From Gemmatimonadota bacterium (GTDB lineage: Bacteria > Latescibacterota > UBA2968 > UBA8231), in assembly GCA_038128265.1 (NCBI GenBank), contig JAYPJE010000046.1, positions 1 to 32,331 on the forward strand: a stretch of 32,331 nt of DNA. The letters are read 5' to 3'. The position numbers and the translations under genes were made by a program. Shown piece after piece: positions 19,481 through 26,931 of this stretch; the first letter of the stretch is position 1; every line of letters begins with the position of its first letter. The notes below the pieces were generated by a model. It saw only the letters and a program-made list of their open reading frames with translations. It searched no databases and was not told where the DNA came from.

Positions 19481-19646
19481 TAAATAAAAGGCCGGTCCAG
19501 CGACAATATCGACGGATTGCCAGGCCCGGTACGCGGGTTGCACACAGCTCAACGACGGAGTGGTATCTTTACTTATTTAGCGTATTTCCATACTTTTGCC
19601 CCCTTGTCAAAGGCCTATTTTTCCCGCCTTCTGCGGGTATATTCGC

Positions 19647-20390
19647 ATGAGTGGATACATTCATCTACAGATCGTTGAAAACGCTGAAGATGTTGCGCGC
19701 ATCGCGGCTCAGAACCTGTGCGCGCAAATACGCGAGCGCTCGGATGCAGTCTTGGGGTTGGCGACGGGATCGACCCCGGAGGCTACCTATGCCGAATTGG
19801 TGCGCGTGCACCGCGAGCACCGAGTATCGTTTTCGCGCGTGCGCAGCGTAAACCTCGACGAGTATCAGGGACTCGATGGTGCGCATGAGCATAGCTATCG
19901 CTACTATATGCAGCGCCATCTATTTGATCACGTCGATATGCGGTCGTGGAATGCGCTGCTATTAGATGGAACGGCCGTCGACGGCGAAGCTGAATGCCGC
20001 GCCTATGAAGAGCGCATTCGCGCTTTGGGCGGTGTGGATTTGTGGCTGCTGGGCATTGGCAGCAACGGCCATATTGCCTTTAACGAACCGGGTTCGACGC
20101 GGGACAGCCGCACGCGCTGTGTGCCGCTGACGGCTGAGACCATAGCCGACAATAGCCGTCTATTTGCTGCGCCTACCGAAGTGCCACGTCGCGCCTATAC
20201 GGTAGGCATTGCAACTATTATGGAGGCGCGCCGCCTGCTGCTGCTGGCCACGGGTGAGCACAAGGCGCGCGCCGTAGCGGCGGCGCTGCGCGGAGAAGAG
20301 GGGCCGCACTGCCCGGCCAGCTTTTTGCGGGGCCACGCCGAATGCACTTTTCTCATCGATCGCCAGGCGGCGTCTTTGTTAGAGAGCTGA
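19647..20390 (+). CDS. nagB: Glucosamine-6-phosphate deaminase
   Basis: Motifs GLATGSTP, NLDEY, GIGSNGHIAFNEPG, TVGIATI and PASFL. The likely start is ATG 19647. Confidence 0.92.
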   Translation: MSGYIHLQIVENAEDVARIAAQNLCAQIRERSDAVLGLATGSTPEATYAELVRVHREHRVSFSRVRSVNLDEYQGLDGAHEHSYRYYMQRHLFDHVDMRSWNALLLDGTAVDGEAECRAYEERIRALGGVDLWLLGIGSNGHIAFNEPGSTRDSRTRCVPLTAETIADNSRLFAAPTEVPRRAYTVGIATIMEARRLLLLATGEHKARAVAAALRGEEGPHCPASFLRGHAECTFLIDRQAASLLES

Positions 20391-20393
20391 TTT

Positions 20394-21590
20394 GTGATTC
20401 TAGTGCTCAACTGTGGCTCTTCTTCGCTTAAATACAGCCTCTTTGACAGCGGAGAGCGGGTCCGTGCCCGTGGCCAGGTCGATCGCATTGGTCAGAGTGC
20501 GTCGGTGGTGGAGCTCGAGTGGGGCGGCGACCGCCAATCGCACTCGGCGGTTATTGCCGACCACGTCGAGGCGCTGTCGGTCGTAGCGAGCATGTTGCAG
20601 GAAAAAGGACAGGGAGTGCATCTGCTCGAAGGCATTGGCCACCGCGTGGTGCACGGCGGCGAGTCCTTCGTCGAAGCGGCGCTGGTTACGGAACGCGTGG
20701 AGAGCGCGATTGCCGCGTGCGCTCCGCTGGCTCCGCTGCACAACCCGGCGGCGTTAGAGGGTGTGCGCGCCGCCCGACAGCTGTTTGACGGCGTTCCCCA
20801 GGTTGCCGTTTTCGACACCGCGTTTCATCAGACTATGCCGCCGCGCGCTTTCCTATATGCCGTGCCGCGCGCGCTACACGCAGAGCAGGGCATCCGACGC
20901 TATGGCTTTCACGGCACGTCGCATCGCTACGTAGCGCATCGCGCTAGCCAACTGTTGGGCGTGGCGTTGGACGAGCTGAACCTGATTACTTGCCACTTGG
21001 GCAACGGCTGCTCGCTAGCGGCTATTGCTGCCGGTTGTTCGATTGATACGACGATGGGGCTGACGCCCTTGGAAGGCGTGGCGATGGGCACGCGTTCGGG
21101 TGATGTCGACCCCGCGCTGGTCTTTCATCTGGCACGCGGCGGGATGTCGTTGGACGCAATCGAAGAGATGCTGCTGCACGAGAGCGGTTTGCTCGGCCTG
21201 TCCGCCTGTTCGCAGGACGTGCGCGAGGTGGAGGCTGCAGCGTTAGGTGGCGATCAGGCGGCTCGTGAGGCCCTTGAAGTATTCACCTATAGAGTGCGCA
21301 AAGCCGTGGGCGCATACTGCGCGGTGCTCGGTCGCGTCGACGCGCTGGTATGCACCGGGGGCATTGGTGAGAACAGCGCGTTTGTGCGCCTTCACATACT
21401 CGATGGGCTAGAGCACATGGGCATATGCATTGACCGCGTGCGCAACCGCACGCACGTGGGCAAGGAAGGCGATATATCGCACGTGGATTCGCGGGTAAAG
21501 ATTTTAGTTGTTCCTACAAACGAAGAGCTCGTGATCGCCCGCGAAGTGCGCGAAGTGCTGGCGAGGTCTGGCAATACAAGTTCCGAATGA
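20394..21590 (+). CDS. ackA: Acetate kinase
   Basis: Motifs NCGSSSLK, GHRVVHGG, PLHNP, FDTAFH, YGFHGTSH, HLGNG, MGLTPLEG, GGIGENS and PTNEE. Confidence 0.96.
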   Translation: MILVLNCGSSSLKYSLFDSGERVRARGQVDRIGQSASVVELEWGGDRQSHSAVIADHVEALSVVASMLQEKGQGVHLLEGIGHRVVHGGESFVEAALVTERVESAIAACAPLAPLHNPAALEGVRAARQLFDGVPQVAVFDTAFHQTMPPRAFLYAVPRALHAEQGIRRYGFHGTSHRYVAHRASQLLGVALDELNLITCHLGNGCSLAAIAAGCSIDTTMGLTPLEGVAMGTRSGDVDPALVFHLARGGMSLDAIEEMLLHESGLLGLSACSQDVREVEAAALGGDQAAREALEVFTYRVRKAVGAYCAVLGRVDALVCTGGIGENSAFVRLHILDGLEHMGICIDRVRNRTHVGKEGDISHVDSRVKILVVPTNEELVIAREVREVLARSGNTSSE

Positions 21591-21612
21591 GCCAATCGGC
21601 AAGGAGTGCACA

Positions 21613-23958
21613 ATGACGGACGATACCCTAACGGCAGTAGAGCGCAGAGCCCTAGAAGGCTCGCCCTTTGGCGATCTCTACGCTCCCAGGGAAAAGATGC
21701 GTACGCTGGTCGTCGACAACTTCCCCTCGCTGGGCAAACTGGCCGCCATGCGCTTTATCGAGTGGGTGCAGAGCAATCCAGGAGGCGTCGTCTCGCTGCC
21801 GACGGGTAAAACGCCCGAGCACTTTATTCGCTGGGTGATGCATCTAATGGAAGGATGGGGCACGGAAGAAGTTGTGCGCGAACTGGAAGCGAACGCCATT
21901 GACCCCGCTCAAAAACCCGACATGGCGTCCCTGCACTTTGTGCAAATCGACGAGTTCTATCCCATTGGGTCTCAGCAGGGAAACAGTTTTTACTCGTATG
22001 TAAATCGGTTTTATATCGATGGGTTTGGTTTTTCTCGCGATCGGGCGCTGCTGATAAATTGCGATGAAATTGGCCTGCTGCCGGGCCAGACCCTACAGGC
22101 GTTGTGGCCCGATGGCGAAGTCGATCTGTCGTTGCGCTACCGGGCCGCACAGGGCGCGCGCGAGAGCGTGCAGCAGCAGGCGCTTATGCGCATTGATCAG
22201 TGGTGCCAGGGCTATGAGCAGCGCATCCGTGATTTGGGCGGCATTGGCTTTTTTCTTGGCGGTATTGGCCCTGACGGACACATCGGTTTTAACGTGCGCG
22301 GTTCCGATCACTTTAGCACGACGCGCCTGACGGAAGTTAACTACGAAACGCAGGCCGCCGCTGCGGGAGATCTCGGCGGGATCGAAGTAGCACGCAAGCG
22401 GCTGGTCATTACGATCGGGTTGGGCACCATCGCCTACGACAAAAACGCGTGCGCGCTGGTAATTGCCGCCGGCGAAGCCAAGGCGGGCATTGTTGCCGAT
22501 GCCGTGCAGCAGGATAAACACGTCCACTATCCAGCGACGGCACTGCACGATTTGCCGGGTGCGCGCTTTTACATAACGCTGGGAGCGGCCAAGCTATTAG
22601 AGCGCCGGCAGTTGGACCTGCTGGTGCGGCAAGAACGCGTCGACGACGAGGCCGTCGAGAAAGTCGTAGTCGATCTATCGGTCAAGTTAAGCAAAAAACT
22701 GGACGAGCTAACGGAGTCCGATTTTGAAGCCGATGAATTTGCCCGTGCGCTCGTTGCCCGTCGTCCAGAGAGCGCACAAGAGCTCGCCGTTTCGGTGCGC
22801 GACGCATTGATCGCCAAGTTGGAGCGCGGCATGCAGACGCTGCAAGATACGCGTTTTTTGCACACCGAGCCGCACCACGACGACCTGATGCTCGGCTACT
22901 GGCCCTATATCGTGCGCCACGGTCGCCCCGCGAGCAATACGCATTATTTCGTCTGTTTGACGGGCGGCTTTACGGCCGTTACAAACCAGTTTATCTGCGA
23001 TCACATTAGGCGCCTTCGCCGCTTTCTGCGCGGCGCCGATTGCGCACAGTTGATGCGAGAGGGCTATTTCGATCCCTCCTATAGCGAGGGGCGCAATCGC
23101 GATGTGTGGCAGTATCTCGACGGTGTGGCTGCCGACGATGACGAACTGCGCAACGAGGGTATGGCGCGCCGCTTTTTGCGCAACCTGATCGATCTGTACG
23201 GTCCGATGGAAGGCGAGGCAATTGAGGCGCGCATCGAAGCGCTGGAGGTCTATTTTGCCGACCGCTATCCCGGACAAAAAGACGAGCCAGAAATACAGCG
23301 ATTAAAGAGCATGTGTCGCGAGTGGGAGGCCGAGTGCACTTGGGGTTATTTGGGTTGGAGTTGCGACAGCGTCAAGCACTTGCGTCTCAGCTTTTATACC
23401 GGGGATATATTCACGCGCGAACCCACGATGGACGGCGATGTAGTGCCTGTTATGGACTTGTTGAAAGAGGTCAACCCAGACATCGTCAGCGTTGCGCTCG
23501 ACCCCGAGGCCAGCGGACCAGATACCCACTACAAAGTCTTGCAGGCCATTACGGAAGCGCTGCGACGCTATGAGAAGTCGAGCGGCCGTTCGGATATCAA
23601 GGTGTGGGGCTACCGCAACGTATGGTTCCGCTTTCACCCGAGCGAGGCCGATATATTTGTCCCCGTATCGCTCAATATGCTGTCCGTTATGCACAGCGCG
23701 TTCATGAATACGTTTATCTCGCAGCGCGACGCGTCGTTCCCCAGCTATGAGCACGATGGACCTTTCTCAGAATTGGCGCGCAGAGTGCAGGTGGATCAGT
23801 ACCAAAAGCTCAAGACGTGTTTGGGACGCGAGTGGTTTCAGGAGCACGATAGTCCGCTGATTCGCGCGACGCGCGGGTTGGTGTATTTGAAGGAAATGGA
23901 ACTGAGTGCGTTCTACGAGCACAGCCGCACGCTTATGCTGGCGGCGGAAAATCGCTGA
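21613..23958 (+). CDS. Long glucosamine-6-phosphate deaminase-like protein with a C-terminal PIG-L/LmbE deacetylase-like domain
   Basis: N-terminal SLPTGKTP, QIDEFY and GGIGPDGHIGFN. C-terminal EPHHDD (PHxDD), LTGG and GPDTH. AAGGAG RBS. Confidence 0.82.
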   Translation: MTDDTLTAVERRALEGSPFGDLYAPREKMRTLVVDNFPSLGKLAAMRFIEWVQSNPGGVVSLPTGKTPEHFIRWVMHLMEGWGTEEVVRELEANAIDPAQKPDMASLHFVQIDEFYPIGSQQGNSFYSYVNRFYIDGFGFSRDRALLINCDEIGLLPGQTLQALWPDGEVDLSLRYRAAQGARESVQQQALMRIDQWCQGYEQRIRDLGGIGFFLGGIGPDGHIGFNVRGSDHFSTTRLTEVNYETQAAAAGDLGGIEVARKRLVITIGLGTIAYDKNACALVIAAGEAKAGIVADAVQQDKHVHYPATALHDLPGARFYITLGAAKLLERRQLDLLVRQERVDDEAVEKVVVDLSVKLSKKLDELTESDFEADEFARALVARRPESAQELAVSVRDALIAKLERGMQTLQDTRFLHTEPHHDDLMLGYWPYIVRHGRPASNTHYFVCLTGGFTAVTNQFICDHIRRLRRFLRGADCAQLMREGYFDPSYSEGRNRDVWQYLDGVAADDDELRNEGMARRFLRNLIDLYGPMEGEAIEARIEALEVYFADRYPGQKDEPEIQRLKSMCREWEAECTWGYLGWSCDSVKHLRLSFYTGDIFTREPTMDGDVVPVMDLLKEVNPDIVSVALDPEASGPDTHYKVLQAITEALRRYEKSSGRSDIKVWGYRNVWFRFHPSEADIFVPVSLNMLSVMHSAFMNTFISQRDASFPSYEHDGPFSELARRVQVDQYQKLKTCLGREWFQEHDSPLIRATRGLVYLKEMELSAFYEHSRTLMLAAENR

Positions 23959-23973
23959 TCGAGAGGATCGTGT

Positions 23974-24486
23974 ATGCTGAGTGAAAATGTGCAAGAAGCG
24001 CTGAACAATCAGCTCAATGCCGAGTTCTATTCGGCCTATTCTTATTTGTCGCTGGCTTCCTACTTTGAGGATTTAGATCTCAACGGTTTTGCCCACTGGA
24101 TGAAGATTCAGTACCAAGAGGAGCTGCTGCACGCCGATAAAATCTACACCTATATCAACAATCGCGATGGCCGCGTGAAGCTGCATCCCATTGCTGCGCC
24201 ACAGTTCGACTGGGAGTCGCCGTTGGATGCGTTTAAATTTGCCCTGGGCAACGAGCGCAAGCTGAGCGAGGATATCTACCAGGTCGTCGATATGGCGCTC
24301 AGCGAACGCGACCACGCCACGCATACGTTTATGCAGTGGTTTGTAAACGAGCAGGTCGAGGAAGAAGCTATTGTGCGCGACATCGTCAGCGATATTGAGC
24401 GCGTTATCGAGAGCAAAGATGGCCTATTTCTCATGGATCGCGACCTAGCGGGACGGCAGCCAGACTCAGTGGGGGAAAGCGCCTGA
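23974..24486 (+). CDS. ftnA: Non-heme ferritin
   Basis: Ferroxidase-centre pattern LNNQLNAEFYSAYSY, EELLH, E and FMQWFVNEQVEEE. Confidence 0.93.
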   Translation: MLSENVQEALNNQLNAEFYSAYSYLSLASYFEDLDLNGFAHWMKIQYQEELLHADKIYTYINNRDGRVKLHPIAAPQFDWESPLDAFKFALGNERKLSEDIYQVVDMALSERDHATHTFMQWFVNEQVEEEAIVRDIVSDIERVIESKDGLFLMDRDLAGRQPDSVGESA

Positions 24487-24509
24487 AGTAGGCCTTTGAA
24501 AAAACCCAC

Positions 24510-24539
24510 TTGACGTTTGATCGGTAGATTGGGCATTGT
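24510..24539 (+). promoter_or_regulatory. Putative sigma70 promoter for the intergenic RNA
   Basis: TTGACG (24510-24515)-N18-CATTGT, preceded by an A-tract (GAAAAAA). The -10 element is weak. Confidence 0.4.
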
Positions 24540-24544
24540 TGGAT

Positions 24545-24852
24545 TGAGACGAGAGAGTCGAGACTGGGCACCACCGGTCGCCGATCGAAGAGGTCCTCAA
24601 TTCGCTCTGGAGTCCTATCGAGCGCCCCATATAATCGGGTTGGCATTGGACGCAGGTGCACCGATCTGGGAAGCACTTCCCAACGGCGCCGATGGCTTGA
24701 GTGCGGATTCAACGCGGAGTGGGACCGCGGTCGTGAGTGGATAGGCCGAAACGGTTTTTCACAGGAGGTCACATGCCGCCGGACAATATAGAGCGGCTGT
24801 AGCGGTAGGTGGGTATAGTCGAATCCCAGGCCGCTGCAGCCGCTCTTTTTTT
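24545..24852 (+). ncRNA. Candidate structured non-coding RNA or leader, family unassigned
   Basis: About 300 nt with no credible long ORF, lying between convergent genes. It has several hairpins, a long-range helix (24571-24583 with 24684-24695), an upstream promoter-like sequence and a downstream terminator. Confidence 0.45.
24790..24852 (+). terminator. Intrinsic terminator, possibly bidirectional
   Basis: A 16-bp stem AGAGCGGCTGTAGCGG / CCGCTGCAGCCGCTCT (one G-U pair) is followed by a T run (24846-24852). It abuts the stop of the convergent gene. Confidence 0.75.
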
Positions 24853-26011
24853 ACCCTATGACCTCTGCTCGTTCCCAGATTTCTTTCTCGTATTCGACGC
24901 CTAAGCCCGGTCCGGTTGGCACGTCGATATAGCCGCCATCGCCAACGGTAAAGTGGGGCGCATACCAATCGGCATAGGTCACAGGTGCAGCGGGAAACTC
25001 TAAGTGGGGTCCGGTGTGCTGGACGACGGAGGCGAAGTGAAGCAGGGTGGCCAGTTCCGGATTGTGCTTGGGGCTGTGCGGCGTGACGGGTATACCGGCT
25101 TCGGCGGCCATCTGTGCCACGCGCAATGCGCGTATCAACCCACCGTTATACATCAAGTCGGGTTGAATTACATCGACGGTGCGCCGCCGTATCATCGCAC
25201 GAAAGTGGCCCATATTACAGTCCTGTTCGCCGCCGGCAACGTCGATATCGAGCGCGTCGGCGACGGCCTGCGTTTCTTCGTACTGCTCAAACGGGCAAGG
25301 TTCCTCGAAGAATGCACAGCCTAAGTCCTCCATTAAGTGTCCGATTCTAATGGCCTGTTTGTGGTCGTATGATCCGTTGGCATCTGCGTAGATCGCAACG
25401 TCAGCGCCCCACGTCGAGCGGGCTAGTTCGAGCAGCCTTTCCGCGCGTCCGGGCAGCGAGTCGGCATTGTTTGCCATGCGGCCGCCAATCTTGAGTTTGA
25501 CACCCGTAGCACCGGTTTCGGCGAGGCGTTGGCCCACCCAAGCGACCTCTTCGTCCGGCGTGGTATCTCGGCGCATGCTCGATAGGTAGATGGGAACGCG
25601 CTGGCGATAGGGCGCTCCAACAAGTTGTCCAACGCTGAGCCCGCTAACCTGTCCAATCAGATCCAATAGGGCGGCTTCGGCATAGGCGACGCAGTTCCAC
25701 AGGGCCGTGCCCTGGTACTTGTAATTGTTGCGAAATGTGTAGACTTCATTGACCAGCGTCTCGAGCTCGCGCGCGTCGCGATCGATAAAAGCGGGAGCTA
25801 CCAGATGGCGAAACATGGGTATTAAATAGGCCATACGGCTATTGGCTGTGGCCATGCCAACGGCACCGTCAGTGCTAGTGGCGCGGACGAGGTAGGTGCC
25901 GTCAAAACGCCGAACCTCGAGCGACTCTATTATCAGGGGCGCATGCCAGGCGGAGTCGAGGCCGAGGAAAGGGGGCCAGTAGTGCTGATCGGAATACGTG
26001 GATTCGAGCAT
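24851..26011 (-). CDS. Mandelate racemase/muconate lactonizing enzyme family protein (acid-sugar dehydratase-like)
   Basis: Motifs KLKIG, DAN, EEP, GEQ, QPD, PHS and PTGPGLG; the canonical D/E/E metal ligands are present. Confidence 0.88.
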   Translation of the reverse strand: MLESTYSDQHYWPPFLGLDSAWHAPLIIESLEVRRFDGTYLVRATSTDGAVGMATANSRMAYLIPMFRHLVAPAFIDRDARELETLVNEVYTFRNNYKYQGTALWNCVAYAEAALLDLIGQVSGLSVGQLVGAPYRQRVPIYLSSMRRDTTPDEEVAWVGQRLAETGATGVKLKIGGRMANNADSLPGRAERLLELARSTWGADVAIYADANGSYDHKQAIRIGHLMEDLGCAFFEEPCPFEQYEETQAVADALDIDVAGGEQDCNMGHFRAMIRRRTVDVIQPDLMYNGGLIRALRVAQMAAEAGIPVTPHSPKHNPELATLLHFASVVQHTGPHLEFPAAPVTYADWYAPHFTVGDGGYIDVPTGPGLGVEYEKEIWERAEVIG

Positions 26012-26097
26012 CGTCTACCCTCTGGGGATTGAGTCGCTGAGCGCGCCGTATTATTTTCGGCGCGTGGGAAATGACCATCCAACGCGGAGAAATGCAG

Positions 26098-26931
26098 ATG
26101 CACATTGCCGTCACCGGTGCGGCTGGCCGCATTGGCCGCTATATAGTATGCGATCTGCGCACGGCGGGCCACAGCGCGCAGGGGATAGACGTCGTGTCGG
26201 GTGCTGGTTTACAGGTGGATTTGACGGACGCCGGTCAGGTCTACGCCGCGCTAGCCGGTGCCGATGCCGTGGTGCATATGGGGGCTTGGGCCAACGCGGG
26301 TATGGTGCCGGATACGCGGACGTACGCCGACAATGTTACCGGCACGTACAACGTTTTTCAGGCATGTGCCGATCTGGGTATCAAGCGCGTAGTTTCTGCT
26401 TCCAGCAATCAGGTATACGGCTTTTTCTCGACTCCGCCGCTGTATGCGCCGATCGACGAAGTGCATCCAACGCGTCCGGTCAACAGCTACGCGCTGTCCA
26501 AACTGGCCGGTGAGCAGGCAGCCGAGTATTTTACGCGGACGCGCGGTATGGAGATCCTTTCCTTGCGCATAATGGGTGCGCGCGTGCCGGCCGAACTGCC
26601 TGGCGATATCCAACAGATTCGGGCAGATATGGCAGCGGCGGCCAAGCTGCTGTGGACGCGCAGCGACGCGCGCGATATTGCGCTGGCCTGTCGACTCGCC
26701 GTCGAAGCTGATCGCGTCGAGCCGGGCGTCTATAACATCACTGGCCCGCGCGTAGTGCTCGACGAGGAAACGCGTGCGCTCTTTGCGCGCTACTGCCCCA
26801 GCACGGAAATACGCGATGGCTTAGAAGGGCATGTCGCTCCGCTAAGCTGTGAAAAAGCGCGGCGCGCCTTTGGCTATGAGCCGCGCTATGCTTGGTCGGA
26901 GCACACCTACCATCTGGAGGATGAAGCGTGA
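26098..26931 (+). CDS. NAD-dependent epimerase/dehydratase (extended SDR; uronate-dehydrogenase-like)
   Basis: Motifs VTGAAGRIG, ASS and YALSK (YxxxK). The GGAGA RBS favours ATG 26098; 26071 and 26092 are possible. Confidence 0.85.
   Translation: MHIAVTGAAGRIGRYIVCDLRTAGHSAQGIDVVSGAGLQVDLTDAGQVYAALAGADAVVHMGAWANAGMVPDTRTYADNVTGTYNVFQACADLGIKRVVSASSNQVYGFFSTPPLYAPIDEVHPTRPVNSYALSKLAGEQAAEYFTRTRGMEILSLRIMGARVPAELPGDIQQIRADMAAAAKLLWTRSDARDIALACRLAVEADRVEPGVYNITGPRVVLDEETRALFARYCPSTEIRDGLEGHVAPLSCEKARRAFGYEPRYAWSEHTYHLEDEA

Follow-up and report, generated by a model that had tools for sequence, protein, structure and literature searches.

A lineage-restricted RNA family of Candidatus Latescibacterota with a conserved rod and an attenuator-like, putatively ribosome-sensing tail

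The window analysed here, a stretch of DNA of 32,331 nt, contains a 364-nt gap (24487-24850) that is the largest between ORFs accepted as genes, a ranking in which the last 830 nt of the window carry no gene assignment. On the 5′ side of the gap, and outside the RNA described below, lies a forward-strand ferritin gene (23974..24486; NCBIfam non-heme ferritin, below cut-off), directly preceded by nagB, an acetate kinase gene and a long NagB-like fusion gene (19596-23958). On the other side is a convergent gene of the enolase superfamily (mandelate racemase-like; 24851..26011, reverse strand; NCBIfam matches below cut-off). Ferritin is the same upstream neighbour in G001, G005, G013, G020, G029, G031 and the metagenomic locus L142, and the convergent enolase-superfamily arrangement recurs in G001 and G005. 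A preliminary description, made from the sequence alone, had singled out this gap between convergent genes and proposed that it holds an unannotated structured RNA with a promoter-like TTGACG and a strong terminator; every string that it quoted sits where it had been placed, and both boundary elements are borne out by the analyses below.

The forward-strand promoter is of the sigma70 type (24510..24539), with a −35 element TTGACG (24510-15), an 18-nt spacer and a −10 element CATTGT (24534-39). A simple promoter scanner made no call on the promoter of this copy; among the homologues, 28 of 35 have a sigma70-like site, whereas of 1000 windows of 140 nt drawn at random from this genome 23 contain one. 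Transcription would start near 24546, giving a predicted forward-strand transcript of ∼307 nt (24546..24852), an extent suggested by RNA contigs and by homology to G001. The transcript would end at an intrinsic terminator (24790..24852, forward strand), a hairpin at 24790-24846 followed by a U-tract, with a folding energy of −40.5 kcal/mol and a pair probability of 0.98, which none of 200 shuffled sequences equalled (z −7.5).

Four sequencing runs (X1-X4) were compared over 22800-26100. The only contig found there in metatranscriptome X1 spans 24557-24784 and the only one in metatranscriptome X2 spans 24572-24782, while X3 contains a contig at 24564-24805 together with short partial matches from other organisms. 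In X4, a run whose kind is unrecorded, 29 of 30 bins are covered. Such contigs carry no strand, level or true ends, RNA libraries can contain DNA, and flanks left uncovered in RNA runs do not prove that the flanking genes are silent. The presence of the stretch in three studies, in two of them without its flanks, is nevertheless as expected of a discrete, abundant RNA.

Folding of this copy alone is less informative. The gap as a whole folds better than shuffled sequences (z −3.1) because of the terminator; 24546-24787 taken alone gives z −0.5, with 65 of 200 shuffles as good, so that single-sequence folding does not establish a structure upstream of the terminator, and it is the homologues that have to carry the case. 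Across 61 related genomes, BLAST detected G001 as the only full homologue (86%, same gene order) and a short piece in G013, and covariance models were therefore needed. Between this copy and G001, 265 of 300 nt of the RNA are identical, with 41 of 59 identical in the preceding spacer and 80% and 63% at the third codon positions of the two flanking genes. The homologue set was widened in three covariance-model rounds (R1, R2 and R3). R1 matched six of 76 genomes of the family, one of them a chance fragment, R2 matched 47 of 132 genomes of the class, and R3 matched 52 of 132 (Ca. Latescibacterota) at E ≤ 0.01, a few weak matches being due to chance.

Covariation among these homologues supports a predicted rod of ∼175 nt (P2-P3-P4) that ends in two hairpins. 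The conserved closing rod (24575..24748, forward strand), found by covariation, RNAalifold and an anchored search, consists of P2 (24575-79/24744-48), a conserved 10-nt bulge on the 3′ side (24734-43), P3 (24582-87/24728-33), a purine loop (24588-91) opposite G24727, and P4 (24592-96/24722-26). P3 and P4 were predicted independently by RNAalifold from 23 diverse members aligned with plain MAFFT, with 95.6% and 93.0% of cells paired, respectively, and two-sided change at eight of the 11 pairs. P2 is supported in seven sequences, and in 19 of 23 the anchored search placed it in the same register behind a bulge of 8-10 nt. Within the rod are hairpin A (24635-64; 89% of cells paired, seven sequences) and hairpin B (24668-81; 79.5% paired, two-sided change at three of five pairs, 23 sequences). 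For P3, P4 and hairpin B together, 89.8% of cells are paired and 47 show two-sided change, vs 19.8 in shuffled alignments (0 of 500 as high) and far above all slid controls, although the shuffles ignore the relatedness of the sequences. Folding of the rod is modestly better than that of shuffles in the 23 members (median z −1.0; five below −2).

Between P4 and the hairpins, two-sequence alifold and folds of individual sequences suggest a variable inner stem (24599..24709, forward strand), in which P5 (24599-605/24703-09) and P6 (24622-26/24685-89) would lead to a three-way junction. Each carries one compensatory change in the two-sequence alifold and forms in individual folds; the two stems cannot be aligned across the family and are accordingly less certain. 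One tandem arrangement was seen at L216 (G122), where a copy that lacks the inner stem and keeps P2-P4 is immediately followed by another copy, itself partial, that has hairpins A and B. In the full-length fold of the copy in the window, P3 has a probability of 0.09, which rises to 0.82 if the tail is left out. That fold also shows a possible switch, with the 3′ strand of P3/P4 sequestering the Shine-Dalgarno sequence and AUG; it was not adopted, as no covariation for it is visible by eye in homologues. The structure thus differs greatly from the one drawn in the preliminary description, of whose six helices only hairpin B (TGGGAA/TTCCCA) holds. The proposed long-range helix has a pair probability of 0.0 (24579-83/24684-88), its strands having other, covarying partners, and in the nearest homologue pairs are broken in CGCTC/GAGCG (three of five), TTGAGT/ATTCAA (two of six), CGCGG/CCGCG (one of five) and GCCG/CGGT (one of four). 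Of the checks it had proposed, comparison with shuffles upheld the terminator and not the region before it, and the search for homologues and covariation was positive for P3, P4 and hairpin B.

The RNA is unevenly distributed. R3 matched 29 of 31 genomes in family f2, two of three in f3, eight of 22 in f4 and 12 of 75 in f1; by genus, g19 is complete (21 of 21) and g22 yields one weak match among 15. Genera g24, g25 and g29 also count as carriers, and g22, g18 and most of g14 as non-carriers. Several genomes carry two or three copies, and a metagenome scan added five loci. When all species genomes were searched with a strict pattern for the 3′ part of the RNA, 11 of 68 loci had an in-frame stop codon and 10 of these also had the hairpin, the source genomes of the 10 being labelled Ca. 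Latescibacterota (six), Gemmatimonadota/-etes (three) and Planctomycetota (one). Outside the class, searches for the RNA returned a single weak match, within an ORF, in 36 genomes of other classes and none in 151 genomes of a neighbouring phylum (one record titled Gemmatimonas) or in five other genomes; since the large searches scored only 16-18 candidates per genome, zero matches is to be read as not found. The RNA was likewise not found on the plasmids searched, and the viral contigs searched gave no accepted match, their single candidate being rejected by R3. Weak R2/R3 matches in G063, G082, G004, G113 and G137 and pattern matches in G036, G069, G025, G011, G061, G091c, G152 and G052 were inspected and attributed to chance, nine further weak R2 loci lacked the 3′ module, and the last pattern used was noisy (63 matches vs 37 for reversed-pattern controls). 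The RNA is dispensable: of 28 close ferritin loci 25 lack it, and in G020 and G031 it is truncated to its 3′ half, behind ferritin.

The preliminary description missed a conserved module at the 3′ end of the RNA, in which a Shine-Dalgarno sequence, a start codon followed by two proline codons, and the terminator hairpin succeed one another. In this copy the Shine-Dalgarno sequence AGGAGG (24763..24768, forward strand) is located 4 nt upstream of the start codon of a predicted nine-codon micro-ORF (24773..24802, forward strand; M-P-P-D-N-I-E-R-L-stop), recognized by comparison of modules, whose codons 6-10 overlap the 5′ strand of the terminator. Forty-one hand-picked modules were compared, including those of five of the 21 g19 genomes, and kin among them are not independent. 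GGAGG is present in 40 of the 41, and the start codon is ATG in 34, GTG in six and TTG in one. Proline is encoded at codon 2 in 37 modules (CCA 21, CCG 16) and at codon 3 in 36 (CCG 23, CCT 9, CCA 4), CCC occurring in none. The spacer behind the Shine-Dalgarno sequence varies from 3 to 7 nt and the ORF from six to 32 codons, yet in 36 of 41 the distance between the start codon and the conserved CG of the hairpin is 20-21 nt. Since the hairpin keeps its distance while the spacer and the ORF length vary, it is the start codon that anchors the geometry of the module, and the peptide beyond Met-Pro-Pro, which is without conservation, is immaterial.

The frequency of Pro-Pro is inflated where R2, R3 and the search patterns were used, as it forms part of them; R2 and R3 end at codon 3 and are thus blind to the hairpin. 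R1, which was made without the ORF, reached G005, G071 and G028, and these three distant matches all continue with a Shine-Dalgarno sequence, ATG CCG CCG, twelve variable bases and the 5′ strand of a terminator. Five paralogues lack Pro-Pro, and a second Shine-Dalgarno-start-hairpin unit without prolines follows in g19, G117, G118, G101, G103, G119b and G120b. CCRCC is able to pair with the Shine-Dalgarno sequence in 14 of 39 cases and with the 5′ strand of the hairpin in 20 of 39 (counts without a control), and RNA-level pairing may share in the conservation of Pro-Pro. There was no support for an enrichment of anti-Shine-Dalgarno pairing downstream of the ORF, 25 of 41 falling below the mean of the shuffles (−6.8 vs −6.3 kcal/mol). 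Loss of the 31 nt that begin with the start codon weakens the terminator, its folding energy going from −40.5 to −9.1 kcal/mol; a ribosome near the stop codon would cover roughly this stretch.

As the preliminary description had concluded, the RNA matches no tRNA, tmRNA, RNase P, SRP or riboswitch. Rfam scans of the region and of 4, 18 and 20 homologue loci returned sub-threshold matches and one unrelated tRNA, with no credible riboswitch match. A tmRNA was rejected, as ARAGORN found neither a tRNA nor a tmRNA in the window and G015 has this RNA in addition to a separate, standard tmRNA. As a separate observation, no tmRNA above the RF00023 cut-off was detected in the g1 genomes G000, G001 and G003 (84, 93 and 98% complete), nor in G000 by ARAGORN or by BLAST with the tmRNAs of two relatives; SmpB is present in G001, G002 and G003, and the absence could be due to gaps in the assemblies or to a tmRNA that is permuted or interrupted. 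SRP RNA (RF00169) gave no match here and is encoded elsewhere in G001, G015 and G028, and the RNase P RNA (RF00010) of this genome is on another contig. The T-box sequence UGGNACC occurs in one of 23 homologues, where those bases form P4, and the neighbouring genes are not related to aminoacyl-tRNA. A CsrB/RsmZ sponge was rejected on its motif content (nine GGA vs 5.9 expected, p about 0.1; no ANGGA) and because CsrA, detected in one of five genomes tested, is absent from the RNA carriers G041 and G056; a CsrA gene is located at G000:C2:108632-108790. Y RNA was rejected because TROVE (Ro60/Rsr) proteins were found in none of five genomes, three of them carriers of this RNA. A literature search on noncoding, structured or 6S RNA in Latescibacterota found no account of this RNA, although supplementary motif catalogues could hold it under another name. 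The unit seen in the preliminary description is therefore retained, on the strength of its conservation, covariation, promoter, terminator, RNA contigs and want of an Rfam match, as a real and new lineage-restricted RNA family that joins a conserved rod to an attenuator-like tail with a predicted role in sensing ribosomes.

The best explanation, adopted tentatively as falling a little short of an even call, is that of a trans-acting RNA in which termination or the stability of the 3′ end is set by the progress of a ribosome. Such a stand-alone RNA gene would have two modules. The 5′ ∼200 nt would fold into the rod, whose conserved base (P2-P3-P4) and loops form the most likely protein-binding surface, allowing the RNA to work in trans as a sponge or scaffold for a protein, and the 3′ module would be an attenuator-type ribosome sensor. 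A ribosome would load at the Shine-Dalgarno sequence and pause on Met-Pro-Pro, its front just reaching the base of the hairpin; with this pause, or with no loading, the terminator would close and the 3′ end be protected, while a ribosome that reached the stop codon would keep the 5′ strand open, so that transcription reads through or the end is left unprotected. How much RNA there is, or in what form, would then track translation status (proline, EF-P, stalling). Prolines or polyproline ahead of an intrinsic terminator have been found to increase termination without EF-P in reporter assays (PMC5021804). In the present case we infer translation of the micro-ORF, pausing, an effect on the RNA end and any function in trans. 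No partner or target was found for the proposed trans-acting RNA (CsrA in one of five genomes, TROVE in none of five).

A more far-reaching proposal, possible but doubtful, is that one RNA joins a rod that binds a protein or RNA polymerase to a ribosome sensor, and so reads Pro-Pro pausing and titrates RNA polymerase or ribosomes. It would, if true, constitute a direct RNA link from translation to global transcription or ribosome storage and a new class of abundant bacterial RNA. The family itself is undescribed; it has dozens of members, is supported by covariation and by evidence of expression, and belongs to a class in which the 6S model of Rfam matches nothing. For the combination of a large RNA body with a Met-Pro-Pro sensor, often with no gene on the 3′ side, no counterpart was found in Rfam or the literature. 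The module would be a natural, repeatedly reused Pro-Pro/terminator device of a kind demonstrated with engineered reporters in PMC5021804.

Whether the RNA acts in trans or on a gene of its own depends on what follows it. According to mechanical ORF calls, the next gene is convergent at g1 loci, at the g19 loci inspected and in G102, G103, G038, G042, G119b, G120b, G123b, G124, G125a and G100b, and lies on the same strand in G071, G029, G013, G027, G015, G028, G117, G118, G101, G058, G123a, G059b, G125b, G100a and G021. In the many copies with a convergent next gene there is therefore no downstream gene under control. Several copies do directly precede same-strand genes (CBS, epimerase, sigma factor), which counts against a stand-alone RNA and in favour of a cis-acting 5′ leader, made up of a ligand- or protein-sensing domain and a uORF attenuator for the next gene and orphaned at this locus by the convergent one. 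This leader is an unlikely alternative that nonetheless stays alive, and it preserves part of the preliminary suggestion of an orphan riboswitch-like leader. Full-length copies are found immediately 5′ of CBS genes (G058, G123a, G059b, G125b), epimerase genes (G071, G029), DegT (G013) and pntA (G015, G028), and in this window epimerase-DegT genes resume on the forward strand beyond the racemase gene. The module without the rod occurs in four g13 genomes between a promoter, with a short leader, and a DrrA-like ABC ATPase gene (below cut-off); it likewise stands 5′ of a sigma70-family gene in two genomes, G035 and G091, and as a leader in G062. On the other hand, neither the downstream genes nor the neighbours of homologues in general share a theme, there is no Rfam riboswitch match, and the RNA is conserved in full despite a convergent next gene, as in g19 (21 of 21 carriers; inspected loci convergent).

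Several of these contexts show features of their own. At L319-L322 (g13) the Shine-Dalgarno-Met-Pro-Pro-hairpin arrangement and further hairpins lie ahead of a DrrA-like ABC transporter operon, and this leader is a candidate translation-stress attenuator in its own right. At L176 and L177 (G035, G091) the module is preceded by TGGCAT-N5-TTGC, which we take to resemble a sigma54 promoter by its consensus. In a single case, one metagenomic copy is followed by a KamA-family radical SAM gene (L142:1501-2478; matches to EpmB-like families below cut-off); EpmB serves EF-P modification.

The trans-acting reading leaves room for RNA polymerase as the partner. A divergent RNAP-binding RNA of the 6S, Ms1 or CoRP type, in which the uORF module governs the level or the 3′ end, would fit a rod of about 175-200 nt that has its own promoter and is present in metatranscriptome contigs, and the role is vacant in that RF00013 matched none of 61 genomes of the class and gave no match in a search of one single genome. 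In three lineages (g9, G100 and, with the module only, g13), non-orthologous group 1/2 sigma70 genes (39-46% identity) adjoin the element; G000 has seven RpoD/RpoS-like sigma paralogues, and G015 and G028 have as many as 11 matches. However, 24 of 25 other sigma loci and all seven sigma paralogues of this genome lack the element, the distribution is patchy (f1, g22) and the apex is branched. A central bubble defines 6S RNA (PMC8876501) and is absent here: in all 23 constrained folds, 0-5 nt on the 5′ side and 0-10 nt on the 3′ side are unpaired inside P4. No 6S model matched the region at E ≤ 10 or any of 42 homologue loci. A canonical 6S RNA is thus not supported, the preliminary description having named a divergent one as the main known alternative; failing 6S membership does not exclude polymerase binding because CoRP is an RNAP-binding RNA unlike 6S (PMC11077062). 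As a reading of the locus an RNA of this type is rather unlikely, and the family offers the lineage a testable candidate for its missing polymerase-binding RNA.

The RNA might instead be a ribosome decoy that traps initiating or Pro-Pro-stalled ribosomes at the hairpin, with the rod touching the ribosome, and so stores or titrates them. A strong Shine-Dalgarno sequence, a pause motif, a hairpin at the edge of the ribosome and an irrelevant peptide would suit this role, as would the tandem duplication of the Shine-Dalgarno-start-hairpin unit in g19 and the six other genomes listed above, and there is a weak hint in the two RNA contigs that stop at codon 4 of the micro-ORF (24782, 24784). Yet where EF-P is present a pair of prolines causes a weak pause, Pro-Pro is missing from the second modules and from five paralogues, and the contig ends may reflect the terminator hairpin, the third contig reaching 24805. 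A decoy is quite improbable. Least probable of all is the suggestion, made in the preliminary description, of a 3′ element of the ferritin mRNA for iron-linked stability or termination control, since, although ferritin lies upstream in seven f1 genomes and a metagenome contig (and is divergent in G059), g1 genomes without the RNA are also without this ferritin, and the truncated copies of G020 and G031 sit behind it, the RNA has its own promoter, the X1 and X2 contigs exclude ferritin, a gene carried by 110 of 132 genomes and remote from most homologues, whose upstream neighbours are other genes, and 25 of 28 ferritin loci lack the element.

Whichever partner a trans-acting RNA may have, both of its modules have relatives in known systems. 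The rod resembles 6S RNA (RF00013) in being an irregular rod of ∼200 nt closed by its ends (closing rod P2-P4 and inner stem together, 158-204 nt), in having its own sigma70 promoter and standing alone, and in sometimes having paralogues. In contrast to 6S RNA, it has no central bubble or covariance-model match, branches at its apex in a three-way junction, carries a Shine-Dalgarno-ORF tail and is patchy in distribution. Ms1 and CoRP, from the parts of the reports considered (PMC9130861, PMC11077062), are likewise lineage-restricted structured RNAs of a group without a recognized 6S RNA; this RNA differs in having no sequence or Rfam match to them, in that its binding of RNAP is hypothetical, and in its uORF tail, which is not described in those parts.

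The tail has the conserved Shine-Dalgarno sequence and start codon and the ORF overlapping a terminator hairpin that mark uORF attenuators, for which the ilvB motif is a comparison (PMC11109978), whereas a consistent same-strand downstream gene is found only with the module-only g13 leaders. In pyrL of pyrBI (PMC5021804) and the vmlR leader (PMC9226507), a short ORF also overlaps or abuts an intrinsic terminator and the position of the ribosome can decide whether the hairpin forms; prolines make the ORF EF-P-sensitive in attenuators of this type. Those leaders have a fixed downstream operon, whereas here the module is attached to a conserved domain of 200 nt and often has no gene to control. 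The Streptococcus fthC uORF motif, compared by its description only (PMC11109978), has a hairpin, an SD-like stretch, an AUG, a stop codon in the next stem and a terminator, and differs in always preceding one gene, in belonging to another lineage and in having no large rod described. The closest parallel for an attenuator-derived RNA at work in trans is rnTrpL/peTrpL (PMC12612679), a leader RNA with a micro-ORF that is released, acts in trans and has an abundance tied to translation; there the peptide and the operon are conserved, unlike here, where the peptide past Met-Pro-Pro is not conserved and the copies share no common operon.
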